A DNA stretch of 30,640 nucleotides from Elainellaceae cyanobacterium (GCA_051117555.1 JBNPEG010000137.1:1-30640); one strand, 5' to 3'. Counted from the stretch's first letter, positions 7,131-25,959 are shown. Translations and numbers: made by a program. Notes: generated by a model from the sequence alone, not told the origin.

Positions 7131-7516
7131 TATGCACTCCAACGCTGCAACACTAACCGAATCGAACCGTCATCATTTTTCTGTTGCTCAGAAACAGAAA
7201 ACCCCTGGTGCGTCGATTCGTTAAGGACGGTGTGGTAAGCATAGCCTTGAGTCACTTGGTTGATAAATCCTTCAACTGACAACGGCTGCTTCCAAAACTG
7301 CAAATCTGCAATTAGCTCGTACTCCTGACCGTTCCAGCTAAAGCCGATATCGTATCCATTCTCTTGCTCGATGGCGATATCAGCCATGTGAGTTTGATTT
7401 TGATAGCCTTTAACCGGAGTAGGACCAGGCTTCCAAACGATTCCAGAGTCAGTCAGAGCAGACTTAAGAGAATTGAGATTGCGGATTTGGGTTTTAATCT
7501 GGCTAAAGTGGGACAT
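7130..7516 (-). CDS. ycf35: DUF1257/Ycf35 family protein
   Basis: MSHFSQIKTQI...DIGFSWNGQEYELIADLQFW...DGSIRLVLQRW. Confidence 0.88.
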   Translation of the reverse strand: MSHFSQIKTQIRNLNSLKSALTDSGIVWKPGPTPVKGYQNQTHMADIAIEQENGYDIGFSWNGQEYELIADLQFWKQPLSVEGFINQVTQGYAYHTVLNESTHQGFSVSEQQKNDDGSIRLVLQRWSA

Positions 7517-7583
7517 AACTCTATTGCTACATGTGATGAACTAACCTGAACGTTGATTGAGGATGGTAAGTCAGTCTATACGA

Positions 7584-7790
7584 CTACCATTCGCTGTAAG
7601 CGGTCTGAGTTGTTGATGTAGACTGGCTAACAGGTTGGGCAAAATGCTCGGAGGTCGGCTCTTGGTTAAGTACATGACCTAACTGAGCCTCAATTGCAGC
7701 CGTCACTTCAGCGCAGGATGACCCCTTAATTCCTGTAACCTTTTCTTCAACTCGACCATCTGAATGGATGACGAACTCCAGCGTTTCCAT
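7584..7790 (-). CDS. DUF2997 family protein
   Basis: METLEFVIHSDGRVEEKVTGIKGSSC...TSEHF; usual partner of ycf35. Confidence 0.85.
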   Translation of the reverse strand: METLEFVIHSDGRVEEKVTGIKGSSCAEVTAAIEAQLGHVLNQEPTSEHFAQPVSQSTSTTQTAYSEW

Positions 7791-8258
7791 GCTTCCCTTA
7801 CGTCTCTTCGTAAAATTTCTAAAAGATTTCTAGGATAAAGTCTGCGCGTAGGCACTAACCCTAGGGTGACGATCATCATCAAGCAAAGCAAATTTTAAAC
7901 TAATCATATTCAATCAAATGCGAATAAATGAATCACTCCGACTGAAAACTTAAGAAAAGTTTGCTAAGACTTGATATCATAACTTCGTTATTGTTTAGTT
8001 TCGCTTAACTGTTAAAACCAGTCAAGCTGAGTTTATGACTTCATCCTGTGTCTCTTCCCTAGGGAAGAGATGATGTCTAAACATTCAGAAAAGTAAAGTT
8101 TTTGTAAGATTAATGGCCAGAAACCAAGATATGCAGCGGGATTCTGTCCTCTCAAGGGCGATCGCTTTTCTTAAGAAAAATTACCGGTCTAGAGGTAAGC
8201 CAGATTCAACCCATCGCCCCCATAATGCTGATTAGGTTGTTTCGCGTATTCTCACCCA

Positions 8259-8711
8259 ATGTCTCATTCCAAGCATTTTCAGATTAGATTGACTGCTCTG
8301 GCAGGTCTTGTTGGTATAGGGGCGATCGCTGCGTTTGGAGAGAACGTAGTTCGGGCTGCTGATCCAGATGATATTCGGCAACTGAATCAGACGCGAGAAT
8401 GTGCAGAGTGCGACCTGACCGATGCATTTTTGAGCGATGCAGATTTAAGAAATGTAATATTGGAGTCCGCTGATTTGGCAAATGCCAACCTGAACGGCGC
8501 AAATCTAACCGGAGCAAATTTGCTCAATGCCAATCTCAGCGGAGTCAGTCTCATTGGTGCGACGCTTTTTGGAGCCGATTTGCGATCCGCGAATCTGAAT
8601 GGGGCTAACTTGCGGTTTGCCAATTTAAACGACGCGCTGCTGCAAGACGCGGTGCTATGCGACACAACGCTGCCCGATGGCGCGATTGAGAATCGCGATT
8701 GCTCAGAGTGA
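8259..8711 (+). CDS. Exported/lumenal pentapeptide-repeat protein
   Basis: Signal peptide, CxxCDL cap, A(N/D)Lxx repeats. Confidence 0.92.
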   Translation: MSHSKHFQIRLTALAGLVGIGAIAAFGENVVRAADPDDIRQLNQTRECAECDLTDAFLSDADLRNVILESADLANANLNGANLTGANLLNANLSGVSLIGATLFGADLRSANLNGANLRFANLNDALLQDAVLCDTTLPDGAIENRDCSE

Positions 8712-8760
8712 TGCAATTGCAAATTTCTATAGTAATGAGTCTTCCGAAATCATCCCAAAA

Positions 8761-11418
8761 TTATGTTCCCAAAACGACTTTGCCGTCTCGCCACGCTTGA
8801 ATCACATTGCCTCGCATGAGGGCTGCGATGCCGTTGAGGATGCGAAATTCTGTCGAGTCGGGGTTAAGTTCTAATGCAGGTTTAAGGGCGCGCTGGGCAG
8901 CGGCGGGGTTCAGGTCATATAAATTTACGAAGGCGAGATAGGCATAGGCATTGGGGTTGCTCGGATCGAGTTGAGTCACTCGTTCAAATGCGGCGATCGC
9001 ACTATCCGCCTTGCGTTGGAGCACTCTAGACAAGGCAAGCCCGTAGGCATACTCCAGACGAGCAGGCTGCTGCTGGAGTCGATAGCTCAAAAGCTGTTCT
9101 GCCTGTACGACATAGGTTTGAACGGGGTCATATAGATTAAGCCGACCGATTTGCTCGAATACCGGCTCAAGCGCATCAACGCCTTGAGGTAATACGGTGG
9201 CAAATTGACGAAGTTGGGTTATGTTGTCCAGCGGCGGAGCAGGAGTGGGTGGCGCATTAGAGTCAATTACTAGACTGGCAGACACTCCCTCAATCGGATA
9301 GGTGTCGCCCGTAGACGGGTTGAGATAGGTCGCTTCTAGGGTGTAGCGTCCCGGTAGCGAGCCCTCAGGCGGGAGCATGGCCATTCGTTCGACAATCTGA
9401 AACGGTTGAGCTGCATCAACGGTCGACTCTGCCAGCGTGGTTTGATTGGCCTGAATCGGTTGGGGATGCAGGGTTCCTAGCCCAATTCCGTGGTCGTGAA
9501 GCCAGCCCGGTTGGTCGGTATCGGCGTGTTTCCAAGTAAGGAGTACCAGCCCATCGTGGAGCTGTTGCCAAGAGCCTGACCAGGTATAGGTGACTGGAAC
9601 CGGATGCCCTGGAGGAACGGCATCAGGCACGCGAACATCATCTAACTGGATTGTAGTTGTCGGTTCAAGAGTGGCAGGTGTCGCCATTTCTGACAATGCC
9701 TGTGATGATGCCTGCAAAGAGTCCTGTGGCTGCACCTCAACAGGCGCGACCCGGCGATGAAACAAGTGGAGACGACTGCCATCTGGGAGAGTCCAGCTTC
9801 GTCGTTTCTCGAAGTCGGGAGACTGGCGCAGCATTCGCACGACGCGGTTTTGTCGGTTACGAGATTTGGGGTCGTGGTGAGTGAGCTGCGGTTTGGTAAC
9901 GCTGAGAAACCAGGAAAGCGATCGCACGTCTTGCTCCATCGACTCGTCATCTTTTCCCATACGACGGGCATAGACACGAAAATTCTCTAAATTTCCGTAG
10001 TAGGTGAGGTTATGCTGATTGATTTCGGGCGTGGATGGCAACACGCCTAGCGTGGCGATTTGATAGGGCTGAGTGCGGATGATTTCATCAATAATTTCAG
10101 CATGAGCCCATTCCGCGCTGCGCTCAGGATGGTGGCGCGCTCCGGGTGCCAAGGCCCGGCTCAACCGATCGCCCATCTGACCTGCCACCGGAAATAAATT
10201 CACTATCATTAGCACCACCGCGAGTCCTACGGTTGCCCAGGGAACGGCTCGCCAGCGACGCGGAAACCGAGTCAGCCCGTACGCCAGCACAATCGACCAG
10301 ATCGGCAACCAGGGCATGATGTAGCGAATATCTTTGTTGGCGATCGCCGACCAGATGATATACGCTCCAGCCAGAAACACCATTAGCCACCCCAATTCCG
10401 ACAGGTTAGTTTGCGGGTATTGCTGGGTCGTTCCAGAGGATTGATCAATCCAAGTCCGATGACGAAAGACCGTTATCCCCAATATCAGCCCTACGATAGG
10501 CACTATTAGCAACGGGTAGGACACGCTAGAGGGAAGCTGTTGCCAGTAGAAAGTCCATGCGCCGAGACTGGTTACAGGCGGATCGCCCTCGATCGCTGCC
10601 GATCGCGTATTGGCGCTAAATGCGGCGCTGATTTGAAACACCCAGTTGTGGCGACTCCACGGAATCATCAGCACCAGTGCGATGAGGAGTCCGCTGAAAA
10701 GCTGAATGAGTCGTTCCCAAGAGCGCTTTTGGAGCTGTCGTCCCAGCATCCAAAGAACAGGCAGCGCCAGGAAAAACACCGCCGTTTGCTTCATCAGCAA
10801 CGCTAATCCAAAACAGGTTCCAAATCCCAGGGCGAGCCCCCACTGAGCCCACCTGCTCGACGCATCTCGCCACAGCGTCAAGACCCAAACGCTTGCGATC
10901 GTTAATGCGGCCAGGGGATAGTCCATAAAGTACTGAGTGCGTAGGCTGTAAAACTCAGGAAACAGCACACACAATCCGACTGCCCACAGCCCGACCCTCG
11001 GACTAAACAATTGCTGCCCTAGCCCATAAACTGACACCAGCAGAATCACGGTATAGACACTATTAACCCGGAGTGCTGGGTCAATTCCTGCACCCAAAAG
11101 ACTGAGAAAAGGGGCAGTGGTGATATATAGCAGCGGCGGATACTTGGATGAAAGCGTCCAAAGCCCTGTCCACCCGTCTTGAGAAAGCCAATCGCCGTGG
11201 CTCAACGTCCACCAATAATTAAGAGAACCAATCAGATGGTCGGCTGGGTCCCAGGATGGTATGCCGTAGTCGAGCGCAAGCCAAATAGAATCGATGCACA
11301 GCCCCAATCCCGCGATGATGATCAAGATGACTAAGGGGCTCAACTGTTTTTGAACTCTCTTGCTCGACACGCGATCGCCTGCTTTAGACCCTACTTGGAC
11401 TGACCTATTCTCACACAT
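8761..11418 (-). CDS. GT-C fold (family 39/ArnT-like) membrane glycosyltransferase with C-terminal TPR
   Basis: PSWDPADH, KYPPL, multiple TM helices, KDIRY, TPR-like C-terminus. Confidence 0.85.
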   Translation of the reverse strand: MCENRSVQVGSKAGDRVSSKRVQKQLSPLVILIIIAGLGLCIDSIWLALDYGIPSWDPADHLIGSLNYWWTLSHGDWLSQDGWTGLWTLSSKYPPLLYITTAPFLSLLGAGIDPALRVNSVYTVILLVSVYGLGQQLFSPRVGLWAVGLCVLFPEFYSLRTQYFMDYPLAALTIASVWVLTLWRDASSRWAQWGLALGFGTCFGLALLMKQTAVFFLALPVLWMLGRQLQKRSWERLIQLFSGLLIALVLMIPWSRHNWVFQISAAFSANTRSAAIEGDPPVTSLGAWTFYWQQLPSSVSYPLLIVPIVGLILGITVFRHRTWIDQSSGTTQQYPQTNLSELGWLMVFLAGAYIIWSAIANKDIRYIMPWLPIWSIVLAYGLTRFPRRWRAVPWATVGLAVVLMIVNLFPVAGQMGDRLSRALAPGARHHPERSAEWAHAEIIDEIIRTQPYQIATLGVLPSTPEINQHNLTYYGNLENFRVYARRMGKDDESMEQDVRSLSWFLSVTKPQLTHHDPKSRNRQNRVVRMLRQSPDFEKRRSWTLPDGSRLHLFHRRVAPVEVQPQDSLQASSQALSEMATPATLEPTTTIQLDDVRVPDAVPPGHPVPVTYTWSGSWQQLHDGLVLLTWKHADTDQPGWLHDHGIGLGTLHPQPIQANQTTLAESTVDAAQPFQIVERMAMLPPEGSLPGRYTLEATYLNPSTGDTYPIEGVSASLVIDSNAPPTPAPPLDNITQLRQFATVLPQGVDALEPVFEQIGRLNLYDPVQTYVVQAEQLLSYRLQQQPARLEYAYGLALSRVLQRKADSAIAAFERVTQLDPSNPNAYAYLAFVNLYDLNPAAAQRALKPALELNPDSTEFRILNGIAALMRGNVIQAWRDGKVVLGT

Positions 11419-11435
11419 ATAGCGATCCTAAATCG

Positions 11436-11559
11436 CTTGTGAAAGGAAACATCGCCCCTACAGAATTTCGGACAATGTAGGGGTCAGGTTACCTGACCTT
11501 GTGAGAGGAAACATCGCCCCTACAGAATTTCGGACAATGTAGGGGTCAGGTTACCTGAC
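11436..11559. repeat. Two tandem 62-bp REP-like units
   Basis: 11436-11497 and 11498-11559 differ at 1 base; each has GTAGGGG/CCCCTAC and a GTCAGG-tta-CCTGAC hairpin. Confidence 0.85.
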
Positions 11560-11608
11560 CCTTTAAATGGTCTGGGGTCTGGTAAGTTTTGTCAGTCAAT
11601 CAGGGGAG

Positions 11609-13423
11609 CTAGTCTCGACAGCGATAAAACTGATATTTGTATCCATCGACGCGTCGCGTTTTGTCATAGACACAGCCCTGTTCTCGCAAATCGGCATCCC
11701 CTTCATAATTAAGCAGCCAGAGGTCAAACGGTCGAGGCACAGCGGTTAGCGACTCTCGCAGCGTTGGGCTGGGCACATTACAGTTCTGCTCGCCGTCGAT
11801 GCGGCATTCTTGGTGGTCGAGAAAAAATTGAGGATTCGATACCTGTGGCAGCGATCGCAATTCCCACGCGACGCCCATCAAACGCCCGGTATGCCCATGA
11901 GACTGATGAGAAATTGCCACGACAGGGGGCGCTTCAGAATTTGCGGCGATCGCCCAGGCGACTCGATCAGGACGGTGAACTTTGCGAAAGCCTAAATCAT
12001 TCACAACACTCAGCGCACCGATCATGCCGACAATCACGACTAGACTGATCATGATGAGCTGACATGAATCATTCATCGGGCGTACCCAACCGGACGATGG
12101 AGATTGTTCGAAAGTCTGATTTGGGATGGGTGCGTTTTGGACGAGTGAACGGCTGCCAGCTAAGCCAGCAGCAACGATTACTAGAACTGCCGGAAAATAC
12201 ACAAAGTTATAGCGAAAGACCTGGGTGAGATCGATGCCCAAGCCATAGGTGATTGCTAGAAACGTGGCGATCGCACCCAGGCAAAACCCTCCCAAGGTTT
12301 GAATGGCGATGCGAGCATCACGATGCTGCCATTGAGCGCGAAGCCCCCGATATGCCCACCCCGTTAGCCCGATGGTGAGGCTAATTAAGACAATTCCAGA
12401 AAGCCTAGAAACCCAACTCGGCACATTCTGGACGGGCATCAGATAAATCATGCTCACCCAACTCGTCACCAGTTGCAGCAGCGGACTCAGCATGCCCAAC
12501 CCAGCCCAACCGTCTTGATAGATCCAGCGGGTCAGTTCGTCATTATTTTGAGCTTTCGTAAGAAACGGTACCCACACTAGCCCGCTTGCAATTGTGCCAA
12601 TGATGACTGCCCCGATACGCCCTCCATATACGCGCATTCGACGGTGATATCGGACGTGCCAAGCCACTCCGATCAGAACCCAACATTCAGCAATGAGCGT
12701 CAGCACGACAAAATAATGGGTGGCAATCCCCAACGCATTCACCCCGACCCAACCCAGTGCAACCCCAGTCGGCATGGGTATTTGACGCCAAATGCTGCGA
12801 ACGGCAATCACCAACGCGCATAGCGATGCCACAATCCAGATGATTGCAAGGGTGTAGTGTCGAGCTTCTTGAGCGAGATAAATCGCAAATGGAGAGACTG
12901 CCATCATGACGGCAGCTAGATGCCCCACCCATTTTGATTGAAAGGCAAGCCAACCCAATCCAAACATGGCAGGGATAGCCGCAGCCCCAAAGACTGCTGA
13001 GAGCGATCGCACTCCCCACACAGAAACCAGTCCGTCAGAATTGGGAAATAGAGCAAGCCACCCATGAGTCAGCACAAAATAGAGCGGAGGATGGTTGCTC
13101 TCGGTCAAAAGATGTTCGATTACTGAGCCAATACCCGTCTGTGGATTGACCAGGGCAGGGCTTAGCAGTTCTCGGGTCGAGAGCCATTCATTAAGGGGAA
13201 TGCTTTGATAGCTGTGCCCCAGGCTAAACACGATGGTCGAAAATTCATCAGCCCACAGAGGCTTAAGAGCCAGATGAACGAGGCGAAGCGCCAGCCCGAT
13301 CACAAACCAAACTAGCACTAAGCCAATGTGAACCGACAAGCGTCTGTCAATCGTCTTCCAGACAGACTGATCCCATGTTGCGAATATACGCTTCACCCTC
13401 ACCTCTTTTCTTAAAAATCTCAT
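11609..13423 (-). CDS. GT-C fold (family 39) membrane glycosyltransferase (start uncertain)
   Basis: LWADE, HPPLYF, AQEARHY motifs; many TM helices. Confidence 0.88.
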   Translation of the reverse strand: MRFLRKEVRVKRIFATWDQSVWKTIDRRLSVHIGLVLVWFVIGLALRLVHLALKPLWADEFSTIVFSLGHSYQSIPLNEWLSTRELLSPALVNPQTGIGSVIEHLLTESNHPPLYFVLTHGWLALFPNSDGLVSVWGVRSLSAVFGAAAIPAMFGLGWLAFQSKWVGHLAAVMMAVSPFAIYLAQEARHYTLAIIWIVASLCALVIAVRSIWRQIPMPTGVALGWVGVNALGIATHYFVVLTLIAECWVLIGVAWHVRYHRRMRVYGGRIGAVIIGTIASGLVWVPFLTKAQNNDELTRWIYQDGWAGLGMLSPLLQLVTSWVSMIYLMPVQNVPSWVSRLSGIVLISLTIGLTGWAYRGLRAQWQHRDARIAIQTLGGFCLGAIATFLAITYGLGIDLTQVFRYNFVYFPAVLVIVAAGLAGSRSLVQNAPIPNQTFEQSPSSGWVRPMNDSCQLIMISLVVIVGMIGALSVVNDLGFRKVHRPDRVAWAIAANSEAPPVVAISHQSHGHTGRLMGVAWELRSLPQVSNPQFFLDHQECRIDGEQNCNVPSPTLRESLTAVPRPFDLWLLNYEGDADLREQGCVYDKTRRVDGYKYQFYRCRD

Positions 13424-13605
13424 GCCAGCGATCGAGATCTGACTCTCTATAACCGTTTCCAGCTATCAGCAACCAGTTTATCGCTCCTAACACAGCCCAT
13501 CGGAAACTGGTGAGATGGAGTGATTATAGTAACGCGAGGCGTGCGATCGCGCGGTAGTTCCTCCGTTTGCAGTCTATAGGATTCAACCGGAACTGATACT
13601 AATGG

Positions 13606-13737
13606 CAGTGGTAGGGTGCGTTGCTGTTAAGCAAACGCACCATTTTATGATGCTTATATATTCAGCAATCGTTTTGATTATAGTGATACATGTTTGCAGG
13701 TGCGTCATGACGCACCCTACAAGATAGCGATCGCACT
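13606..13737 (+). repeat. REPIN-like element, copy 1 (132 bp)
   Basis: GTAGGGTGCG..CGCACC hairpin, AT-rich spacer, inverted GGTGCGTCATGACGCACCCTAC, then AAGATAGCGATCGCACT. Confidence 0.88.
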
Positions 13738-13908
13738 ACCATTACGTGCCCTTCGTGTAATTGCTGCAACAATTTCAACCCCTGTTATCGCTGCAACAAA
13801 GAATTCATTGCTTAGCGTTGGAGTAAACAACCCTAACACCCGCGCTGAACCAGTTTCGTTGATATATCGCTTGACCAGCGCACTACTGTCTAAAAAGTAG
13901 ATTGCCAT
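13717..13908 (-). pseudogene. vapC: VapC/PIN-domain toxin, C-terminally truncated
   Basis: YFLDSSALVKRY..E.GS PIN motif; only 63 aa, and the stop lies inside the repeat. Confidence 0.85.
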
Positions 13909-14274: not shown

Positions 14275-14359
14275 GCATAACGGTGAAGTTGTGCGGCGGC
14301 AGACAACCTCGAACTCTCACCGATAACCTCCATCCGTCCGCGCCAACGCAGTGTTGGAC
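14275..14359 (-). other. Integron attC-like site 1 (85 bp)
   Basis: GTCCAAC-5nt-GTTG[G]CGCGG[A]CGG...CCGCCGCACAAC-6nt-GTTATGC, starting 11 bp after the upstream stop. Confidence 0.8.
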
Positions 14360-14369
14360 TGCGTGAACA

Positions 14370-14828
14370 CTAACTCAAAAGCCAGGATGCAATTTCGTCT
14401 GGATGAACGACCCATTTGACAGGATTTATGTCATTAATAACAGGATTTACTTCTAGTTTCAATAAGTGCGTTTCATACCAATATCTAAATGTAGGAGCAA
14501 ATAATACTTTTGCAAGTCCGATGTCTAGATAACCTGCTCTGTAAAGCAGTCCTAATTCACTAAAAATATTTCTTGTTGTTGATATATGTTGCCACTGTTC
14601 TGGATTTAGAGAGGATTTAATTTCTCTATATGTCAAAGGGTTTTCCGAAGAAAGATGCTGCTTGAGAATCTGATCTGCAATGAGCCTTGAAGGTAAAGCA
14701 CCTTGTAATCTCTCATACATCTTCAAAGTAGTGTTTATTCTGGTTTGTCTTTGGCTTTCACGTCTGGTAAAGAAGTAACTCAGAAAAGTACCTATAAAAA
14801 CGCCAACTAAACCACTTAGAAATTCCAT
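14370..14828 (-). CDS. Cassette-like hypothetical membrane-anchored protein (DUF4760-like)
   Basis: N-terminal TM helix, N.F.ELG..Y..G.LD..L...LF...F..W pattern, AT-rich, followed by attC. Confidence 0.7.
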   Translation of the reverse strand: MEFLSGLVGVFIGTFLSYFFTRRESQRQTRINTTLKMYERLQGALPSRLIADQILKQHLSSENPLTYREIKSSLNPEQWQHISTTRNIFSELGLLYRAGYLDIGLAKVLFAPTFRYWYETHLLKLEVNPVINDINPVKWVVHPDEIASWLLS

Positions 14829-14891
14829 GCTGCCTTCACTTGTTACATATTACAAATTAAACTTCATCATTTCATGATTACCACAGGCAAT

Positions 14892-15094
14892 GGCGTTGTT
14901 GCATGAAGAGGGGTTGCGGAAGGGTGAGTACATGGTAAGTTTCAATTACCACACCAAAACCAAGCCATGAAACCTCAATACCGCATCCGCAACTGGTCTG
15001 AGTATAACGCTGGACTCAAAGCTAGGGGAAGTCTTACCTTCTGGATCGACGAATCCGTGCTGGAGGCATGGATTGTTGAGGATCTAAGCGGCAA
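14892..15094 (+). mobile_element. IS5-family (IS903-group-like) left-end remnant with transposase fragment from 14967
   Basis: GGCGTTGTTGCATGAA terminal repeat; YRIRNWSEYNAGLKARGSLTFWID motif; cut off by repeat copy 2. Confidence 0.85.
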
Positions 15095-15183
15095 GATGCT
15101 TATATATTCAGCAATCGTTTTGATTATAGTGATACATGTTTGCAGGTGCGTCATGACGCACCCTACAAGATAGCGATCGCACT
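15095..15183 (+). repeat. REPIN-like element, copy 2 (right 89 bp only)
   Basis: Matches 13649-13737. Confidence 0.9.
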
Positions 15184-15186
15184 TGC

Positions 15187-16074
15187 TCAAAAGGATATAT
15201 CCCTAATCACTTTAAGAAGTTTAAGCAAGGCTGGGTGAGGCGTGTCTGGAGACCAAACAATGGCTGATTCTAATTGAGGCGTGATTTCTTCGAGGGAGCG
15301 GGTGACAACGCCTCGTTGCTGAATGCGTTCAATAGAGGCATGAATTAGCGATATTCCCAGCCCTGATGCCACCAGCCCAAGGATAGTTTGCTGTGGAAAT
15401 GCCTCTTGAACAACGGTTGGGCTGAAGCCAGATTGTTGGCAAAAACTAATAATCGCGTCATATAGTACGGGGCCGACTTGTCTAGGAAACAAAATAAAAG
15501 GTTCATTCGCAAGGGCCTTAACTGAAACCGGCTGCGAGACGTCTTTAGATAAAGGATGATCCTCTGGAATTGCAACAATCAAAGGCTCTTGATAAATCAC
15601 CTCCTGGGCTAGCGAGGGAGCATCTATAGGCGGATGCAGCAGTCCGACCTGAATGTTTTGGTTCAAGAGGGCATCGATCTGCTCCATTGTGGATAGACGA
15701 TTTAACTCCAAGTGAATGTCTGGATAACGAGCTTTGAACTGCCGCACGATGGTGGGCAAAACACTATTGAGAATAGGTCCTGTGAACCCAATTTGCAGAT
15801 GACCCGCTTCACCACGATCTACTCGCTGTGCCACAGCAATAGCGTGTTCCGCCTGCCTTAACGTTTTCTGAGCTTCTTCCCAAAATGCTTTACCTGCTTC
15901 AGTCAAGCGAATCGTCCGCTTCGTCCGCTGAAAGAGCACTACGTCTAATTCCGATTCCAATTGACGAATTTGCCGACTCAACGGCTGCTGAGCCATATGA
16001 AGTCGTTCAGCAGCGCGGCCAAAGTGCAATTCTTCGGCTACCGCCACGAAATAGCGCAAATGACGTAACTCCAT
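15187..16074 (-). CDS. LysR-family transcriptional regulator
   Basis: MELRHLRYFVAVAEELHFGRAAERL..QQPLS HTH; 295 aa. Confidence 0.96.
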   Translation of the reverse strand: MELRHLRYFVAVAEELHFGRAAERLHMAQQPLSRQIRQLESELDVVLFQRTKRTIRLTEAGKAFWEEAQKTLRQAEHAIAVAQRVDRGEAGHLQIGFTGPILNSVLPTIVRQFKARYPDIHLELNRLSTMEQIDALLNQNIQVGLLHPPIDAPSLAQEVIYQEPLIVAIPEDHPLSKDVSQPVSVKALANEPFILFPRQVGPVLYDAIISFCQQSGFSPTVVQEAFPQQTILGLVASGLGISLIHASIERIQQRGVVTRSLEEITPQLESAIVWSPDTPHPALLKLLKVIRDISF

Positions 16075-16171
16075 TTGAACCTTTCAGGTGTTAATTACGG
16101 ACTTAAGAGGTGTTGGACATCCATAAAGGCTCATTCTACAGTCACAGGTAAGCGGCTATTGTTGACTGAAA

Positions 16172-17299
16172 ATGTTTGGCATCAAGAAAGGTCAGAAGTT
16201 TTATGGAACGGCGCTGCTTCTTTTGGTGGTAGCGGGGCTGACGATACCCGTTACGAGCAGCATTACGATCGCATCCCCCGGCGCTATCCAAGCGAGTCAG
16301 CAGAATGAGCTATCAAGCTCAGCGCTCTCGCGCGAAGACGTATTCGTAGAAAGCGACCCAGGAATCGAGATATTCGTTCGAGAAGTCGTGTCAAGCTCAC
16401 CGCCGACAGGCGTGCCCATTCTGATGATTCATGGCGGCGGCCCTGGAGGAATTGCGTCCTTTGATCTCGATGTTCCGGGATACTCTCTGGCAGCGGATTT
16501 TGCTCAAGCGGGTCATCAAGTCTACGTCATGAATGTCCGGGGATGGGAACGTTCGACTCGGCCTAGCGTGCTGGCCGAACCCGCTGACCGCAATCCCCCG
16601 GCGGTGACCTCTGAGGAGGCTGTGCGTGATATTGGTGCGGTTGTTGAGTGGATACGCGATCGCACTGAGCAACCCCAGGTTGCCCTGATTGGCTGGGCAA
16701 CGGGTGGACACTGGGCAGGCATGTATACCACTCGTCACAACGACAGAGTAAGCCATCTAATTATGCTAAATAGCCTTTATGGAGTAGATGCACCGTGGCC
16801 GTTGACTGAGCGATTTGAGAATCCCGATGAACCAGGCACCTTTGACAATAGCGGTGGCGCGTATCGATTGGTTAACTATGAAGGGTTTTTGCGAGGGTGG
16901 GATAATTCGATTCCTGTAGATGAAAAGTCACTGTGGCGCGAGCCAGCCGTTGCGGATGCTTACGCTCGCACAGCAGTTCAGCTAGATCCGACTAGCCAAA
17001 CACGCACGCCATTCAGTGCTCGCATCCCAACTGCTTATCGAGAAGAAAGCTTTAATCTTGCTCAGGGATATCGGTATTGGGAAGCACGCGATATATCTAC
17101 CCCGACACTATTTATTAGAGGAGAATTAGATTTTTGGTCGCGCCCCGAGGATGCCTCAGCACTCGCATCTGAGCTTGTGAATGCTCCTGTAGTACGAACC
17201 ATTACGATTCCAGATGCTACGCACTACCTGTTCAATGATCGTCCAGAACGGGGAAGAAATCAGTTTATTCAAGAGTCACTCTCATTCCTAAATCAATAA
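16172..17299 (+). CDS. Exported alpha/beta-fold hydrolase-like protein
   Basis: Signal peptide, HGGG, GWATGG elbow, GELD, ATH; divergent from LysR. Confidence 0.88.
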   Translation: MFGIKKGQKFYGTALLLLVVAGLTIPVTSSITIASPGAIQASQQNELSSSALSREDVFVESDPGIEIFVREVVSSSPPTGVPILMIHGGGPGGIASFDLDVPGYSLAADFAQAGHQVYVMNVRGWERSTRPSVLAEPADRNPPAVTSEEAVRDIGAVVEWIRDRTEQPQVALIGWATGGHWAGMYTTRHNDRVSHLIMLNSLYGVDAPWPLTERFENPDEPGTFDNSGGAYRLVNYEGFLRGWDNSIPVDEKSLWREPAVADAYARTAVQLDPTSQTRTPFSARIPTAYREESFNLAQGYRYWEARDISTPTLFIRGELDFWSRPEDASALASELVNAPVVRTITIPDATHYLFNDRPERGRNQFIQESLSFLNQ

Positions 17300-17393
17300 A
17301 TATTCTGTTGAGCAATGCTTATCCACCACATCCTGACTAAAGTTAACTGGCCGAACGGATTGCTGACGGCCTCATTACTGGTGCTCAGTCTTT

Positions 17394-17524
17394 CAGTGGT
17401 AGGGTGCGTTGCTTAACAGCAACGCACCATTTTATGATGCTTATATATTCAGCAACCGTTTTGATTATAGTGATACATGTTTGCAGGTGCGTCATGACGC
17501 ACCCTACAAGATAGCGATCGCACT
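17394..17524 (+). repeat. REPIN-like element, copy 3 (131 bp)
   Basis: Near-identical to copy 1 apart from the first hairpin loop and a T/C change in the spacer. Confidence 0.9.
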
Positions 17525-17611
17525 TTTTTTATGGCCTGGATGAAAGCCCCTAGTTCTTGCCCCTTCTCTGTAAGCACGAACTTTCGTATTTCATGGCTTG
17601 TTCGGGATTGC

Positions 17612-17675
17612 CAGCTATGGTCGAGTTCAGCGGCGGGCCGCGCAGCGGACCGTCCGCTGCAACCGTTTGTTGTGC
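17612..17675 (-). other. Integron attC-like site 2, R' box degenerate
   Basis: GCACAAC-5nt-GTT[G]CAGCGG[A]CGG...CCGCCGCTGAAC-6nt-ATAGCTG (GTT core lost). Confidence 0.75.
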
Positions 17676-17698
17676 CGCATCTCATGGATGTAGGACAC

Positions 17699-18100
17699 TC
17701 ATTTCCAACCCGACACACGTCCTGCTTGCTCAATCCAATCACGGATTTCCGGCGCCTTGACATCCTCGAGAGTCTTCAACTTAACGTAGCGGGATCGGTC
17801 GGCGTCTCCAAGTGGCGGTGGAGAATCGAAATCAGCACCGCCATGGAAGACAACATTCACAGAGACGTTGTACGCGACCATCTCGATAATCCACCCGAGA
17901 TCGGGCAATCCGTAGTAGGCTTTCTTCCACTTGATGGCGTAGTGGACCCCGGGAAGCATCTTGCGGATTTGCTTGTCCAGGTGAGTGACCATCGGATTCA
18001 AATCCGGCATCACATGCTGTATCCATTCCTCGATCTCGGCGTGGCTGTCCGATGGAGCGGGCGGCTTCCGGGTCGTACTTGGTTTCCGTGACTTCTTCAT
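17699..18100 (-). CDS. DUF1801 (YdhG-like) protein, gene cassette
   Basis: AIKWKKAYYG, VVFHGGADF, RYVKL...WIEQA; lies between two attC-like sites; GAGG RBS. Confidence 0.8.
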   Translation of the reverse strand: MKKSRKPSTTRKPPAPSDSHAEIEEWIQHVMPDLNPMVTHLDKQIRKMLPGVHYAIKWKKAYYGLPDLGWIIEMVAYNVSVNVVFHGGADFDSPPPLGDADRSRYVKLKTLEDVKAPEIRDWIEQAGRVSGWK

Positions 18101-18142
18101 CGACATCCTCTTTTAGATGAGTTTGTTGCGGGAGCGAGATCG

Positions 18143-18229
18143 GCATAACGTCACAATGTAACGGTTGTAGTTATCTTTGCAACACCGTAGAAAGATCGTG
18201 GGTCAATCCGTTGCCATGCCGTGTTAGCT
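18143..18229 (-). other. Integron attC-like site 3 (87 bp)
   Basis: AGCTAAC-5nt-ATG[G]CAACGG[A]TTG...ATCTTT/AAAGAT stem...CAACCGTTACAT-6nt-GTTATGC. Confidence 0.78.
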
Positions 18230-18291
18230 GGAGCCGTCAGCGATCGCCTTTGCTTACTCAATCTCTGCATCTGAGCGATCGCCCGTTTAGA

Positions 18292-18349
18292 AGTAATGGA
18301 GTCGGGGAGTGATGGAGATGACTTGATTACCCCATCACTCCATCACTCG
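18292..18349. repeat. STRR-like short repeats in inverted arrangement
   Basis: GGAGTGATGG ... CCATCACTCCATCACTC. Confidence 0.6.
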
Positions 18350-18585
18350 ATCGCGCAAGTTGCATCCCGGAATTAAGAAACCTTATACGAACCGCTTCGA
18401 TTTCACAACAATTGGTCTTGATTTGCCAAACGAATTGAAATGTTTGCCTAGCGATATAAAAGTTTCTAATCTAGTTGGTCTCGATTCTATATTCGACCGA
18501 CTTCATTTGATATCCGGTGGTAGAAATTTGATATTGGATAGTGATCAATCCATGCGCAATATAAGATTTTCTTACTCGAATATGA

Positions 18586-18900
18586 AATGATGACCATCGG
18601 ATAGTGAATAATGACTGTCCCATATAGACCATTCACTATCCAGTATAAAACGTTTAATATCCGACACAAAACGTTCAATATCTGACACAAAACGTTCAAT
18701 ATCTGACACAAAACGTTCAATATCTGACACAAAACGTTCAATAGCAGACATTGAATGATGACCATCGGATCGTTAATAATCACTATCGGATCGTGAATGA
18801 TGACCATCGGATCGTGAATAATCACTAGCTGACATTGAATGATGACTATCGGGTGGTGAATGATTGCCCTTAGATAGTGAACAATGACTATTCGATGTGG
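18586..18900. repeat. Degenerate 21-bp-period tandem array (~15 periods, two unit types)
   Basis: AATATCYGACACAAAACGTTC x4 (18656-18739) embedded in AATRATSACYATCGGATMGTG-type units. Confidence 0.88.
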
Positions 18901-19029
18901 GGCGATCGCCAAAAGACCAATTTTGATTTTTAGTCTAGTCCTATAAATCGTAACTATTCAAAATAGTGATTGCTGGTTACCCGAGCAATGAGTTAATTGG
19001 AAAGGTAAGTCTAGAAATTGGAGGATGTG

Positions 19030-21948: not shown

Positions 21949-23442
21949 TTACGATCGGTCAATTATGGGCGATTCATAGGCATCGAGCCCACTCAAAATC
22001 GCTCGTCTAAGCTCGCTATTCATTTTGATGGGTGAAGGAGACTCTGACGGCTGAGGATGCGATGCCGTCTCCTCTTTGTGATCCTGATTGGGCACATCAT
22101 CTTGACTGGGCAACTCAGCGGGTTTGGCTGCTTCAATTTGGGTCAAGACCGTTGCCTGTAGTTTGACAACTTCCATCAAGTGAGTGCTTTGTTGCCGATA
22201 AAGCACGATCTGCTCATCCGTTGCTTGCCACTCAGTGCGATAACTAGCCGCCAGCGCCTCCAGTTGAATGTCATATCTTTCTCGAATTGCCTGCTCCAAT
22301 TCTTCCGCATCGATATCCGGGAGTGTAATCAACTGAATTAAGATTGCTTCATTGGGCTGTCGCTCAATCGCTTGAATCACTATGTCGGGGACGCCATACT
22401 TCACCTGCACATCATCAATCGACAGTAATACCGCGCGCCAGTCAATGCCATCATCAAACCGCAGATCAATGGTGTTTGAAATTGGTGGAGGGAGTTTAAC
22501 CGTATCTAAAACAGGCGTTTTGTCAATATGGGCAGGTTCGTTAATCTGTCCATTATCATCGTCTGCCCTATCAGAAAAGACAGGGAGGGGTTCTTCCCAA
22601 ATGACTCCATCAAAATTTGTAGTACTGTCGACATTCCAATCTTCCACAGAGGCTCCTGAAAGGATGGCATGAGCAAAGTTAGTTCCGATCGCCTGAGTTC
22701 TAAAGAGATTGGCTCTAGATAAGTTAGCGCCCGTTAGATTTGCACCATTTAAGTTTGTGCGAATCAGATTGGCTTCGCTTAGATCGACGCCACTCAAATC
22801 CATACCGCTGAGGTCAACCCCGATTAGGTTGGCGCGGCGCAAATCAGTATCTCGAAGAATGGTGCCAATCAGGGTTGTTCCGCGTAGATCAACCCCATGA
22901 AGGCAGGCACGATTTAAGTCGACGTTGGTGAGATTTGCCTCGCTCAAATTAGCACGACTTAAATCTGCGCGGCTGAGATTTGCCTGACTCAAGTTGGCTC
23001 GATTGAAGTTGGCATCCTTTAAATCTGCACCAATCAAAATTACGCCATTCCGGTCTTGGCCGCTCAGTTCTGCATTACTCAGGTCAGCACGGCTGAGATT
23101 TGCAAGTCTTAGATTTGCGCCGCGAAAGTCGGCATTTGTAAGATTTGCTTGGCTCAGATTGACTTGGGTGAGATTTGCCCATCGCAGCATGGTCTGCTCA
23201 AGGTTTGCCTGATTCAGGTTGGCTTGGCTCAGATTTGCCCAGGTCAGGTTTGCATCACTCAGATCGGCGTGGCTGAGATTAGCTTGATTGAGATCTGCCC
23301 ACTTAAAATTGATTTGAGTAAGAGTGACATGGCTGAGATTTGCCTGACTGAGATTGGGGGTGGCTGGATCTTTCTTCCTCCACTCATTCCAGGCTTCCAC
23401 CCCTTGCCTGATTAGAGCAAGATGTTCTGCAATGGTCATCAC
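21949..23442 (-). CDS. Pentapeptide-repeat protein with C-terminal domain
   Basis: GVEAWNEWR cap and a long A(N/D)Lxx tract. Confidence 0.93.
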   Translation of the reverse strand: MMTIAEHLALIRQGVEAWNEWRKKDPATPNLSQANLSHVTLTQINFKWADLNQANLSHADLSDANLTWANLSQANLNQANLEQTMLRWANLTQVNLSQANLTNADFRGANLRLANLSRADLSNAELSGQDRNGVILIGADLKDANFNRANLSQANLSRADLSRANLSEANLTNVDLNRACLHGVDLRGTTLIGTILRDTDLRRANLIGVDLSGMDLSGVDLSEANLIRTNLNGANLTGANLSRANLFRTQAIGTNFAHAILSGASVEDWNVDSTTNFDGVIWEEPLPVFSDRADDDNGQINEPAHIDKTPVLDTVKLPPPISNTIDLRFDDGIDWRAVLLSIDDVQVKYGVPDIVIQAIERQPNEAILIQLITLPDIDAEELEQAIRERYDIQLEALAASYRTEWQATDEQIVLYRQQSTHLMEVVKLQATVLTQIEAAKPAELPSQDDVPNQDHKEETASHPQPSESPSPIKMNSELRRAILSGLDAYESPIIDRS

Positions 23443-23513
23443 ATTAGCCTTTCAGCCCTACTATTTTCCATAGTTGTTCATAACTATTTTGCCAGTCGAT
23501 GCTGCCACGTCTA

Positions 23514-23616
23514 ATACCAATTCTTCAAAGTCAGGCTACAAATGAACAGACTAGAACCCTTGCAAGGCTTCTGGCCGTTAATCCAAAATCGCAAATCCAA
23601 AATCGAGAATTGGTAT
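23514..23616. mobile_element. MITE (~103 bp) with IS630-type ends
   Basis: ATACCAATTCT ... AGAATTGGTAT inverted ends; left end resembles the IS end at 30518; internal AATCCAAAATCG x2. Confidence 0.75.
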
Positions 23617-23701
23617 AACTGCTGACGCTCGATCATCGCCGTACTTTGAGAACATCGCCTTGCGATGGGTTGGCATAACCATTCATGGCAATGAAATACC
23701 C

Positions 23702-24052
23702 TTATTTCGCAGCAAATTGTCCTTTTTTAAGATGATGCAATGCCTGAATGACAGTGCCTCTAGCATATTGACTCATAGCCAGCACAGGAACCTGATTGAC
23801 ATGCACTTGATATTGGATATACGGCCCTTGATGCAACAGGGTAACGGCATCCCTTGGGTGGATACCCGCCTTCAAAGAAGTCACAGCTACGGCATCATCT
23901 AATTGGATAGCTGCCCAATCATTTTGGGCAAAGCGCTGATAGAGCATTGGGTAATCCAATGGTTCTCCAATCACCTGCTGAGCTTGAATTAGATACTGCT
24001 GCCGAGCGTGCTGTCCTAACGCTTTGGCGGGTTCTTTAGGTTGGAGCGTCAT
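23702..24052 (-). CDS. Hypothetical protein, third gene of the parM operon
   Basis: 116 aa, starts 12 bp after the previous stop. Confidence 0.75.
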   Translation of the reverse strand: MTLQPKEPAKALGQHARQQYLIQAQQVIGEPLDYPMLYQRFAQNDWAAIQLDDAVAVTSLKAGIHPRDAVTLLHQGPYIQYQVHVNQVPVLAMSQYARGTVIQALHHLKKGQFAAK

Positions 24053-24064
24053 GGATGAACACGG

Positions 24065-24571
24065 CTATGCTACCGCTTCAGCATTACTGCACAAATCGCC
24101 TAGCAAGGCATCTTCGTCAAAATCAGATTCGTCATCTGCTACCTGAGTGGAGACGTAAGAATCAGGCACAGCATCCGGTGTTTGATCAGATTGAGTATTA
24201 TGCACCCGGATGGATTGGATTTTCAGAACTTCGGCGATCGCCTCTTTGATGTCAGTTTTCAAATCAAGGGCGATCGCCCCTGGACGCTCAACCTCAAATG
24301 CCCCACAGAGAACTTCAATTTGACGTGAAAGCATCTCCACCGCATCTTGCGCCATCGCTTGAAGCTCATCGTCTGTCACGTCTTTGCTGTCCTGGTAAGC
24401 AAATGGTTTATAGAATGCCACCATAGCATCTACCCCCTTCCGCTTCCCTTCTCGGCTACTAAAGCAACGATTCTTGATCAGGTATTGAAAGACGACTCCA
24501 ATAACCGAATCAACATCGGCATTAAATGCAAACTGAACCCGCTGGCGAACAGTCTTCTGATTGGCAACCAT
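24065..24571 (-). CDS. Putative ParR-like adaptor
   Basis: Directly downstream of ParM; basic N-terminus with a beta-strand, acidic/hydrophobic C-terminal tail. Confidence 0.6.
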   Translation of the reverse strand: MVANQKTVRQRVQFAFNADVDSVIGVVFQYLIKNRCFSSREGKRKGVDAMVAFYKPFAYQDSKDVTDDELQAMAQDAVEMLSRQIEVLCGAFEVERPGAIALDLKTDIKEAIAEVLKIQSIRVHNTQSDQTPDAVPDSYVSTQVADDESDFDEDALLGDLCSNAEAVA

Positions 24572-24581
24572 TGCACCCGCG

Positions 24582-25706
24582 CTAAGCTAACACCTCGCTG
24601 TACTTGCTGATAAGTCCCTGAAATAAGCCATAGCAATCGGCCATTCGCATTACCAGGGATGGATTATCAGTCGCTTCAGGCAGTTTGGTGACAATTTCGT
24701 CAAGTTTTTCCTGTTTGCCATCCGCAAAAATAACCTGATCGGTCATTCGCAGTTGATCAAAATAGTGCTTAATCGTTTGCTCCATAACAAACGCTGCACC
24801 ACCGCTGATAATGATATCTGACGGTCCATCCGACAGTTGACCCAGCAAATTATCTTGCAAATACAGTCGAGATGTTCTCCAATAGGCATGTCGAACGGCT
24901 TCAACGGCTGCAGCAAAGTCATAGAGTTCGCCGCGTGCTTGCGAGATTTGGGTTGTTTTATTAGTTGCTAATGCTGCCATCAGTGCAGGATAGTCAGCCG
25001 GCGTAATTCCGCAGCTTCGTGATACCCGCTCAAACACAGTCCAAAAGCCAGGGCCATCAGAATTAGACTTGGCACTCTTGAGGCTTCCTTGCTCAAAACA
25101 AAGCACAGATAAATTTCGATGTCCCAGCATCAAAATAAAGGTGCGGCGTTGGTCGATTGAAACACCCATTCCTTCAAGCTGAGCCTTGCGGTTGAGATAG
25201 AGGCCAAACCCTTCTGGGCAAAACTTGAGACTCACGCGTGCTTGCTGAGCCATGCCTCTAAACCGGAAGTTTTGAGCGGTTTGAGTTAGTTTTGCAGCGA
25301 TTTCATCTTTCGTATTCATTTCTGTCAGGGGCAACGGTAGCCAAATGACAGCTTCATACTGGTTGGGCAATCGCTCTTTGTCTGCGATAACGCCTAGCGC
25401 CGCAATGATTTTGTAGACAGCTTGATTGGCTTTGTTTTCGGTCATGCTGTTGCTATCTAAAAATGCTTTGGCGGCATCGCCAACCAAAATCACTTCATTG
25501 CCAACTTGGAGCCAAGCATGGTCTTGTGGACGACCTCCTGCATTGAGAACCGAAAGTGCCAAGGTGGTTAACCCATCTGCGACACCAGGGCCCATCCAGA
25601 GGGCTTCTTGCTGATTGTCTTGTACTTGGTAGAAGAACTTGGAACCAGATGTACCAATGTCTCCAGCCAGGTAGATGGTCGAATTAGCGGTGGTGGTCTG
25701 AGTCAT
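24582..25706 (-). CDS. parM: ParM/StbA-family actin-like ATPase
   Basis: DIGTSGSK (phosphate 1), PEGFG, MLGHRN (cyanobacterial phosphate 2 variant), ISGGAA. Confidence 0.85.
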   Translation of the reverse strand: MTQTTTANSTIYLAGDIGTSGSKFFYQVQDNQQEALWMGPGVADGLTTLALSVLNAGGRPQDHAWLQVGNEVILVGDAAKAFLDSNSMTENKANQAVYKIIAALGVIADKERLPNQYEAVIWLPLPLTEMNTKDEIAAKLTQTAQNFRFRGMAQQARVSLKFCPEGFGLYLNRKAQLEGMGVSIDQRRTFILMLGHRNLSVLCFEQGSLKSAKSNSDGPGFWTVFERVSRSCGITPADYPALMAALATNKTTQISQARGELYDFAAAVEAVRHAYWRTSRLYLQDNLLGQLSDGPSDIIISGGAAFVMEQTIKHYFDQLRMTDQVIFADGKQEKLDEIVTKLPEATDNPSLVMRMADCYGLFQGLISKYSEVLA

Positions 25707-25935: not shown

Positions 25936-25959
25936 GGATAAATGCAGATGCAATGAATC

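Follow-up and report, generated by a model that had tools for sequence, protein, structure and literature searches.

A small, partly decayed attC cassette array, very probably a CALIN, in a cyanobacterial genome with an integron integrase encoded elsewhere

Genes and recombination sites at the locus

The DNA analysed here (the window) is the whole of a 30,640-nucleotide contig, C178, from an Elainellaceae cyanobacterium. On the minus strand, starting at 18229 and ending at 13735, its features can be read as an array in the order attC3, a DUF1801 cassette with attC2, the cassette of a 152-aa ORF with attC1, and a truncated VapB-like/VapC cassette. The minus strand is the top strand for all three attC sites, which are separated by gaps of approx. 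3.25 kb (attC1 to attC2) and 0.47 kb (attC2 to attC3), and all three cassette ORFs are co-oriented with it. The cassette of the 152-aa ORF has grown to 3.3 kb through the insertion of a LysR-hydrolase module, together with an IS fragment and two D3 repeats. Next beyond attC3 are a tandem repeat and the gene of a P-type ATPase, and not another cassette.

Table 1. Features of the cassette array and of the elements inserted in it (positions in the window).
Feature	Position	Strand	Remarks
D3 repeat, copy a	13606..13738	plus	located where vapC and the array break off
vapC remnant, residues 1-58 of a 154-aa PIN toxin	13735..13908	minus	98% identical to P0001 in these residues
VapB-like antitoxin, 87 aa	13909..14172	minus	first gene of the last cassette, starts 102 nt after attC1
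attC1	14275..14359	minus	canonical in layout, with the conserved centre of the family; R'' GTCCAAC and R' GTTATGC
Cassette ORF, 152 aa	14370..14828	minus	ORF reading; without Pfam or NCBIfam match
IS fragment, N-terminus of an IS5-like DDE transposase	14890..15095	plus	weak DDE_Tnp_1_5 match, 23.3 bits, below the cut-off of 28.1; cut by D3 copy b
D3 repeat, copy b	15095..15183	plus	truncated at the 5' end
LysR-type regulator, 295 aa	15187..16074	minus	Pfam PF03466 and PF00126; divergent from the hydrolase
Alpha/beta hydrolase, 375 aa	16172..17299	plus, opposite to the cassettes	Pfam PF00561, E 8e-20; part of the inserted module
D3 repeat, copy c	17394..17524	plus	does not belong to a cassette
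attC2	17612..17675	minus	short loop, R'' GCACAAC, perfect L box with two unpaired bases, R' ATAGCTG
Cassette ORF, 135 aa, DUF1801	17699..18106	minus	Pfam PF08818, E 3.5e-9; between attC3 and attC2, cassette of approx. 540 nt
attC3	18143..18229	minus	R'' AGCTAAC, R' GTTATGC; long loop; G and A unpaired in L'', with 6 bp between them

Read on the minus strand, the three sites share one order: R'' ending in AAC, a 5-nt spacer, L'', a loop, L', a 6-nt spacer and R'. The L'' arm consists of 3 bp, an unpaired G, 6 bp, an unpaired A and 3 bp; the two extrahelical bases occupy positions 16 and 23 on the top strand's AAC arm and flank a 6-bp stem. This agrees with the attC layout in print (Nivina et al. 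2016, PMC5027507), which has a central unpaired spacer of 5-6 nt per arm and two or three extrahelical bases on the AAC arm, the outermost ones divided by a stem of 6 bp. The AAC core, the 5-nt spacer after R'', the 6-nt spacer before R' and both unpaired bases were present in 3/3 sites, and L-box pairing in the structural scan amounted to 11/12 (attC1), 12/12 (attC2) and 11/12 (attC3). The GTT core was retained in two sites, attC1 and attC3, with identical R' boxes, and was replaced by ATA in attC2. Reading of the sequence thus bore out each of these features as given in the preliminary description, namely the AAC core, the two spacers and the two extrahelical bases of the L arm in every site and an intact GTT in two. 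The strict 7-mer consensus RYYYAAC and GTTRRRY (Nivina et al. 2016, PMC5027507) fits one of the six boxes in the window, the R'' of attC1.

On the bottom strand, the unpaired bases of attC sites are described as usually a G near the R box and a conserved T further in (Nivina et al. 2016, PMC5027507). The far T was kept in 3/3 sites of the window, and the near base was a C in 3/3. Because the wording of that source is "usually", the C is a deviation from the usual G rather than a failure to qualify as attC. Compared with sites with two unpaired bases such as aadA7, as presented in the same paper, the window's sites have in common the positions 16 and 23, the 6-bp stem, the 5- and 6-nt spacers and the far T on the bottom strand; they differ in the near base, C instead of the usual G, and, attC2 excepted, in their long loops (sites of 85-97 nt). 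To judge from their sequences, attC1 and attC3 retain every feature needed for recombination, and attC2 is probably inert after the loss of GTT; the DUF1801 cassette would then be unable to leave without its neighbour.

Stop codons lie 10 nt before attC1 (152-aa ORF) and 23 nt before attC2 (135-aa ORF) on the same strand, in accordance with the earlier observation that two of the sites closely follow a stop codon; the 3' end of a co-oriented ORF is where an attC is expected. Of 400 other genomes of the class, 4 contain a homologue of the 152-aa ORF, and none of these belongs to its own family; one of the four homologues has an attC behind it, and the closest (68% identity) has none within about 1.5 kb. 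The DUF1801 ORF has a homologue in a single one of the 400 genomes, again with no attC within about 1.5 kb. Both ORFs are rare and patchy in occurrence, which we count as support for mobility. As to the inserted elements, D3 is a repeat of approx. 130 nt with a hairpin near each end, the IS fragment shows 90% DNA identity to G002:C38, and the hydrolase next to the LysR gene has no counterpart at the same locus in the genomes G002 or G003.

The VapB-like antitoxin is intact, and its 138 homologues are mostly of the same length of 87 aa. A type II VapBC pair comprises a full-length PIN toxin beside the antitoxin; here the toxin is reduced to residues 1-58 of 154. Residues 59-154 of VapC were found nowhere in the genome, and the last cassette's own attC is gone along with the rest of vapC. 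The toxin-antitoxin pair noted earlier as beginning after attC1 is real, but with a toxin of only 58/154 residues it is unable to work as an addiction module.

Folding and distribution of the attC family

Minimum-energy folding of the bottom strands gave a mixed result. The fold of attC2 alone was more stable than those of shuffled sequences (z of -3.2 and -3.9), and those of attC1 and attC3 were not (z about 0). Thus the bottom-strand folding that had been proposed as a check distinguished attC2, and neither attC1 nor attC3, from shuffles. The minimum-energy fold of attC1 was not the canonical one, which lies 1.4 kcal/mol above it. Counted as canonical pairs formed in attC1, attC2 and attC3, respectively, the bottom strand reached 15, 14 and 15 of 15 and the top strand 14, 13 and 14; the bottom strand pairs better because two C-A mismatches of the top strand become G-T wobbles.

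When all 6.06 Mb of the genome were scanned for the structure under strict settings, with at least 11/12 L-box pairs, four matches without N runs were returned, two of which are attC1 and attC3. When the unpaired G and A were required and GTT was optional, six matches were obtained genome-wide, half of them the sites of the window. A search of Rfam for an attC covariance model gave 0 hits. A model of our own, R1, was used instead, built from the three window sites and five similar sites of the same genome. With filters off, R1 matched only attC1, attC2 and attC3 in the window (E <= 3e-12; next match E = 1.4), with scores of 90.6, 51.3 and 68.3 bits; all three are training rows. Since the training set of R1 comprised the sites of the window and others picked for L-box pairing, the L-box pair counts and the window scores are partly circular.

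Across the genome R1 detected 24 sites at E < 0.01, 16 of them outside the training set, spread over 16 contigs and in ten cases alone on their contig. AAC was present in 22/24 and GTT in 18/24. The strict 7-mer boxes were found in 4/24 sites for R'' and 4/24 for R', and the family has its own box consensus, ..YTAAC with GTTAGNY or GTTATNC. The near unpaired base of the bottom strand was a C in all 42 sites that were read (24/24 in this genome and 18/18 in other genomes). R1 matches of the same family were found in 37 of 40 related cyanobacterial genomes, with up to 89 sites in one of them, and attC1 is 85-90% identical to attC sites of G002 and G003. Sequence and structure are thus common within the genome and across the class, as in the taxon-specific attC families of chromosomal integrons described by Ghaly et al. 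(2021, PMC8352920). That paper presents a Cyanobacteria-specific attC covariance model, and the R1 family is presumably identical with this published type. The C in place of G could mark a recognition variant that co-evolved with the cyanobacterial IntI.

Relatives of the antitoxin are encoded at 17 loci, 15 of them cyanobacterial, and 8/17 loci contain R1 matches; every one of these matches (17/17) is co-oriented with the genes. An attC lies approx. 100 nt upstream of the antitoxin in four loci, as in the window, and directly behind vapC in three. This resembles the toxin-antitoxin cassettes of chromosomal integrons as reported in Sci Adv 2024 (PMC13108822), in that a VapB-like/VapC pair is bounded by attC and the same cassette recurs in several cyanobacterial arrays; the truncated toxin of the window distinguishes it from them.

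The integron integrase and the locus in a same-genus genome

Profile searches of the 30.6-kb contig with TIGR02249 and PF00589 gave no match, and no intI fragment was found in it. An intact IntI of 322 aa is encoded on another contig of the same genome, C211. It scored 466 bits against TIGR02249 (cut-off 265), also matched PF00589 and PF13495, and aligned end to end with VchIntIA (2a3v, E 2.6e-87), with the catalytic motifs aligned and the IntI-specific extra segment free of gaps. The absence of an integrase in the preliminary description accordingly holds for the window and not for the genome, in which the proposed search for IntI was successful. On C211 the family is represented by an attC 0.9 kb upstream of intI, on the opposite strand and behind one ORF, which is the classical divergent layout. 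A further contig, C168, carries a broken intI and two attC sites. IntI exceeded the curated cut-off in 18/41 genomes, and among the matches listed all 13 of 13 same-contig pairs of IntI and attC were divergent. We concluded that the three sites of the window are genuine attC, of a family that is tied to integron integrases.

The window is syntenic with a same-genus genome at 656-13558 and 21952-30517 (86-92% identity), and the part between 13.56 and 21.95 kb is outside this synteny. In the same-genus genome, the same PMT-like gene has two attC and a half-site just upstream; the half-site terminates the array, the strand is the same, and the cassettes are different. No cassette is common to the two arrays, though their flanks are approx. 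90% identical. As the locus in the second genome has attC sites and different cassettes, the array would be old and its content would have been turned over, most simply by the genome's IntI acting in trans, to judge from these two genomes.

A decaying cassette array and its alternatives

We hold with high confidence that the locus is a small, partly decayed chromosomal cassette array without its own integrase (CALIN), in a genome with an intact IntI encoded elsewhere. Cury et al. (2016, PMC4889954) define a CALIN as two or more attC of one strand at distances below 4 kb and without an intI. The window cluster fits this definition, since it has co-oriented sites less than 4 kb apart and no tyrosine recombinase in the window, and the three co-oriented, CALIN-like sites initially reported are confirmed on the minus strand. 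For about half of the published CALINs an IntI is encoded elsewhere in the genome, likewise here. The IS and repeat debris within the cluster agrees with the origin by rearrangement proposed there for CALINs, and the cargo is CALIN-like in having unknown or toxin-antitoxin functions and not antibiotic resistance. In comparison with CALINs as outlined in that paper we see no essential difference; the present case has three sites only, one of them degenerate, and one cassette split by a two-gene module.

Decay of the array shows in the loss of GTT from attC2, in the deletion of vapC together with its attC, and in the insertion of the D3 repeat, the IS fragment and the LysR-hydrolase module. These signs support the decaying array inferred earlier, and the IntI encoded elsewhere supports the trans-acting integrase that had been suggested beside it. 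By analogy with known integrons, the bottom strand (the plus strand of the window) would fold into a hairpin. IntI would recognise this hairpin by the pair of extrahelical bases together with the unpaired spacer, and would cut in the AAC/GTT core. Recombination between two attC would then excise a cassette as a circle, and recombination of attC with attI or with a secondary site would insert one. A possible further reading, on balance an unlikely one, is that the integrase encoded elsewhere continues to remodel this orphan array at its fixed place in the chromosome, with the near-base C of the cyanobacterial attC family as a possible mark of a recognition variant.

The case illustrates how cassette arrays distant from an integrase persist and erode. 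A dead attC joins two cassettes into a single unit, a deletion takes the toxin and leaves the antitoxin, and mobile-element debris carries ordinary genes into the array; the sister-genome comparison is a natural test of whether orphan arrays still exchange in trans. For annotation, the results confirm that cyanobacterial genomes commonly contain attC sites and that a simple model from one genome recovers them class-wide. Integrons, CALINs and the cyanobacterial attC type are already published, so the window is a clear but ordinary example, and the current understanding of integrons is unchanged by these results.

The alternative that survives best is a fossil array, a remnant of an ancestral integron or of ancient secondary-site insertions on which no integrase acts, the difference from the sister genome being due to deletions and ordinary recombination. 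All of the decay signs above would suit a fossil, as would the half-attC at the end of the sister array. However, attC1 and attC3 keep all core features and the genome retains an intact IntI. The lack of a shared cassette between flanks that are approx. 90% identical furthermore makes exchange an easier explanation than loss alone. We regard a fossil as possible but on balance unlikely.

It is very improbable that the sites belong to an ordinary interspersed repeat of cyanobacteria, a palindrome of the MITE or REP kind, unrelated to integrons and only similar to attC. Such a repeat would account for a family that is conserved in sequence and not in structure alone, for its scattered and often solitary sites and their large number in one relative, and for two window sites, attC1 and attC3, that fold no better than shuffles, in a genome that is rich in other small repeats. 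The asymmetry of the sites is nevertheless exactly attC-like, with spacers of 5 versus 6 nt and unpaired bases on one arm only. In addition, a family site lies beside the intact IntI in the divergent arrangement common to all listed pairs, the sites stand behind same-strand ORFs and bound the same toxin-antitoxin cassette in several genomes, and an attC model specific to Cyanobacteria has been published.

Hardly credible is a cluster that belongs to the genome's complete integron and was parted from intI by a fragmented assembly: the assembly does consist of 256 contigs, C211 does end 220 nt beyond its first attC and draft assemblies are known to break integrons (IntegronFinder 2.0 preprint, 10.1101/2022.02.28.482270), but the array lies in the middle of its contig, approx. 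13.5 kb on one side and, on the other, approx. 8.7 kb farther out (not the 3.7 kb adjoining attC3) are syntenic with chromosomal DNA of the same-genus genome, the contig holds neither intI nor a fragment of it, and the tandem repeat and the P-type ATPase gene follow attC3. C211 itself, with one cassette ORF and one attC divergent from intI, is a candidate complete integron.

The three attC-like sites

Reading the minus strand base by base confirmed the three co-oriented attC-like sites that the preliminary description had proposed. All three start with a 7-nt box ending in AAC and a 5-nt spacer. Next is an arm with paired segments of 3 bp, 6 bp and 3 bp or more, the first two separated by an unpaired G and the last two by an unpaired A. 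A loop leads to the complementary arm, which lacks these two extra bases, and a 6-nt spacer separates that arm from the second 7-nt box. The claimed AAC core, spacers and pair of extrahelical bases were thus present in 3/3 sites. GTT was said to be intact in two, and is so in attC1 and attC3; the second box of attC2 reads ATAGCTG, and therefore GTT is lost there. In the passages of Nivina et al. (2016, PMC5027507) on site structure, the unpaired bases share the top-strand arm with AAC and occupy position 16 and position 23 or 24, separated by 6 bp of stem, and the spacers measure 5-6 nt. The positions expected for this two-unpaired-base attC are present in 3/3 window sites. Because the unpaired bases are on the AAC arm, the top strand corresponds to the minus strand of the window, and the recombining bottom strand to its plus strand.

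Folding of the bottom strands, a check proposed earlier, supported attC2, the only site of the three that folds better than shuffled sequence (z -3.2 and -3.9); attC1 and attC3 fold no more stably than shuffles. When the exact sites were folded with and without the canonical constraint, the canonical fold was near-optimal yet not unusually stable, and for attC1 it lay 1.4 kcal/mol above an alternative fold. The bottom strands of attC1, attC2 and attC3 formed 15, 14 and 15 of the 15 canonical pairs, versus 14, 13 and 14 for the top strands. In minimum-energy folds computed with 10-nt flanks, the R and L boxes of attC1 and attC3 did not appear. A search of the window against Rfam at gathering thresholds gave no match; Rfam is not known to contain an attC family.

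Demanding the exact geometry with AAC and GTT and at least 11/12 arm pairs left four matches free of N runs in the whole genome, two of them being attC1 and attC3; six of the ten matches first returned by the structural scan (at least 11/12 pairs) were discarded as N-run artefacts. The reversed-genome control gave five matches without removal of such artefacts, and its ratio to the real scan was not relied on. A scan without GTT, in which the unpaired G and A were demanded, found six matches in 6.06 Mb, three in the window. A short motif pair common to attC1 and attC2 had six correctly ordered occurrences genome-wide versus one in the swapped-order control, and this search exposed related sites on other contigs.

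The attC family and the integron integrase

The three window sites were aligned with five similar genome sites, and the covariance model R1, to which the canonical R and L helices were given, was trained on them. Among the aligned sites 79.6% of cells were paired vs 67.5% in shuffles and 8/12 L pairs were altered on both sides, in favour of the structure; since the rows were selected for pairing these counts are circular and we treat them as description, not proof. R1 detected 24 sites in the genome at E < 0.01, 16 of which were outside the training set, with AAC in 22/24, GTT in 18/24 and a conserved centre; the strict 7-mer consensus boxes were seldom matched. The sites are spread over 16 contigs as five clusters of 2-4 co-oriented sites, one site beside an integrase gene (intI) and ten sites alone on their contig. 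One motif-pair match, C29:68489-68661, was not found by R1 and looks like chance.

The genome search for an integron integrase (IntI) that the preliminary description had advised revealed an intact copy on contig C211 and a broken one on C168. The intact protein of 322 aa scored 466 bits against TIGR02249 (cut-off 265) and aligned over its whole length to that of Vibrio cholerae (2a3v), the IntI-specific segment included. Upstream of this gene, at a distance of 0.9 kb and on the other strand, one small ORF is followed by an attC site of the family, which is the classical integron layout. C211 ends 220 nt past the site, and a search for contig-end overlaps that could extend C211 found none. The largest cluster seen in the assembly, four co-oriented attC sites in 2.1 kb on C182, lies ~0.9 kb from the contig end. 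It is a candidate for the continued array of the C211 integron, with no contig-end overlap found. On C168, fragments of an intI pseudogene with one internal TAG are on one strand and two attC sites on the other; this element looks like a second, dead integron.

Among 40 other genomes representing 27 families of the class, 37 contained R1 matches (up to 89 in one genome) and three had none; IntI scored above the cut-off in 18/41 genomes, our own counted. At least 11 cases of an IntI gene or fragment with a family site <10 kb away on one contig were seen among the matches listed for the 40 related genomes. With the two pairs of our own genome included, 13/13 among the matches listed are divergent. 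Cyanobacteria are already among the integron-encoding groups in the data cited from Cury et al. (2016, PMC4889954), and a Cyanobacteria-specific attC model exists (Ghaly et al. 2021, PMC8352920, in the part cited here). The IntegronFinder 2.0 preprint (10.1101/2022.02.28.482270) gives statistics on CALINs (clusters of attC sites lacking an integron integrase), and cyanobacteria are not named in its main text. A dedicated account of cyanobacterial integrons was not found in our literature search; supplements may hold such detail.

The unpaired base near the R box on the bottom strand is C in 24/24 genome sites and in 18/18 readable sites of other genomes, the latter count being slightly biased because R1 was trained with C at this first unpaired position. 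It is 'usually G' in the passages cited from Nivina et al. (2016, PMC5027507). In the Vibrio enzyme the near unpaired base is contacted by W157, whose counterpart in the IntI of this genome is R; IntI1 also has R (R168) at that position (Demarre et al. 2007, PMC2095811), so the enzyme offers no hint of a special adaptation. The C is a small point of possible novelty; our literature search found no paper on the unpaired bases of cyanobacterial integrons, and here too supplements may hold such detail.

The window array and its cassettes

No tyrosine recombinase was found on the contig by profile search, as the preliminary description had stated for the window. With filters off, R1 reported only the three sites in the window, and no further attC or remnant was found there at E < 1, including between attC2 and attC1 (next match E = 1.4). 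Three sites on the same strand, with gaps of ~3.25 kb and ~0.47 kb and no integrase, constitute a CALIN as defined in the passages cited from Cury et al. (2016, PMC4889954), where half of the CALINs are in genomes with IntI elsewhere and CALINs often lie near IS. We concluded that the attC/CALIN reading as a whole is real and correctly interpreted, the element being of a known kind, with recombination predicted from sequence.

Down the minus strand the order is attC3, a DUF1801 cassette, attC2, a 3.3-kb stretch, attC1, a VapB-like antitoxin gene and a vapC remnant. The cassette of ~540 nt after attC3 holds a 135-aa DUF1801 ORF ending 23 nt before attC2, and at the end of the 3.3-kb stretch an ORF of 152 aa, belonging to no known family, stops 10 nt before attC1; two sites do follow a stop codon closely, as had been noted. 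The toxin-antitoxin (TA) pair said to begin after attC1 was recovered in part: the antitoxin gene is present and starts 102 nt after the site, but vapC is cut to its first 58 codons (its relatives have 154 aa), and the remainder is absent from the whole genome.

A copy of a ~130-nt repeat lies at the point where vapC breaks off; the repeat has short inverted termini and, close to both ends, a perfect hairpin. Two more copies fill the 3.3-kb stretch together with an IS5-like transposase gene fragment and a divergent LysR-regulator/hydrolase pair; from orientation and the surrounding mobile-element debris we infer that all of these are insertions in the 152-aa ORF cassette. Besides the three copies in the window array, one copy lies between the two C168 attC sites and one 18 nt from an attC site on C194, and the repeat may be a small non-autonomous transposon favouring cassette arrays. 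G+C content did not separate the array from its flanks. Between attC3 and a P-type ATPase gene a unit of 21 nt is repeated in tandem, and similar sequence is present in both same-genus genomes (G001:C400, G002:C76).

Relatives of the antitoxin were found at 17 loci in public genomes, 15 of them cyanobacterial. R1 matches were present in 8/17 loci, and 17/17 matches were on the strand of the genes. A site ends ~100 nt before the antitoxin in four loci, as in the window, and is nearby in two more; in three loci a site starts within ~10 nt of the predicted end of the 154-aa vapC. The preliminary description had left room for homologous genes never occurring with attC sites; several of the TA relatives are bounded by R1 sites, and in other genomes the pair is clearly a cassette. 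By this comparison the attC belonging to the TA cassette of the window is gone, and no fewer than four sites were once in the array. The 152-aa ORF occurred in 4/400 other genomes of the class, none of its own family, with one of the four copies followed by a site, and the DUF1801 ORF in 1/400, its copy being without a site (0/1). The rarity and patchiness of both predicted ORFs would be compatible with mobile cassettes, which is not proof and is weaker support than that from the TA pair.

Coordinates of attC sites, integrase genes, repeats and related loci
Feature	Location	Strand	Remarks
attC1	window 14275-14359	minus	base-by-base sequence reading; second box GTTATGC
attC2	window 17612-17675	minus	base-by-base sequence reading; second box ATAGCTG
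attC3	window 18143-18229	minus	base-by-base sequence reading; second box GTTATGC
~130-nt repeat copies	window 13606-13738, 15095-15183, 17394-17524; C168:27507-27613; C194:20589-20639		13 BLAST matches in genome
21-nt-period tandem array	window 18570-18900		~8 copies, 63-81% identity
intI	C211:1230-2198	+	intact
141-aa OB-fold stress-protein-like ORF	C211:347-772	-	single cassette divergent from intI
attC	C211:220-316	-	R1 match; contig end 220 nt beyond
C168 element	C168:26654-30451 (L005)		intI fragments at 30283-30451 (+)
C182 attC cluster	C182:26553-28660 (L009)		four co-oriented sites
Sister array	L025 (G002:C49) 658-4330		three TA-like gene pairs (named by eye); ends in apparent 5' half-attC joined to conserved flank

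The locus in related genomes

Two contigs of a same-genus genome contain counterparts, 86-92% identical, of window 656-13558 and 21952-30517, and the 8.4 kb between these flanks have no match in that genome at that place. Immediately upstream of its orthologous gene for a PMT-like membrane protein, the sister genome carries two R1 sites and an apparent third, of which the 5' half is left, on the strand used in the window. As attC arrays are found at the same locus in two species, the array dates back at least to the origin of the genus. A genome from a different genus of the family had 0 R1 matches in the 11 kb adjoining its PMT-like homologue. No cassette is common to the window and the sister array (0); array content is wholly different between the two species and the flanks are ~90% identical. 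Judged from these sequences, cassette exchange by a trans-acting integrase would be the simplest account of the turnover; loss and replacement of cassettes by other routes is a possible one. Cassette turnover at a fixed orphan locus is likewise a small point of possible novelty.

In the incomplete same-genus genome G001, counterparts of window 13490-13608 and 18275-18912 lie on one contig (C400, L022) ~770 nt apart, in an order opposite to that expected for an empty site, with no attC there. Three window stretches of ~100 nt (23508-23625, 11499-11604 and 5020-5117) each match many same-genus loci at 84-95% identity, the first with >40 copies among the matches listed, and are abundant small interspersed repeats. 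The window also contains a tandem duplication of a 62-nt unit (11436-11559) and a 20-nt unit present in three identical tandem copies (512-573).
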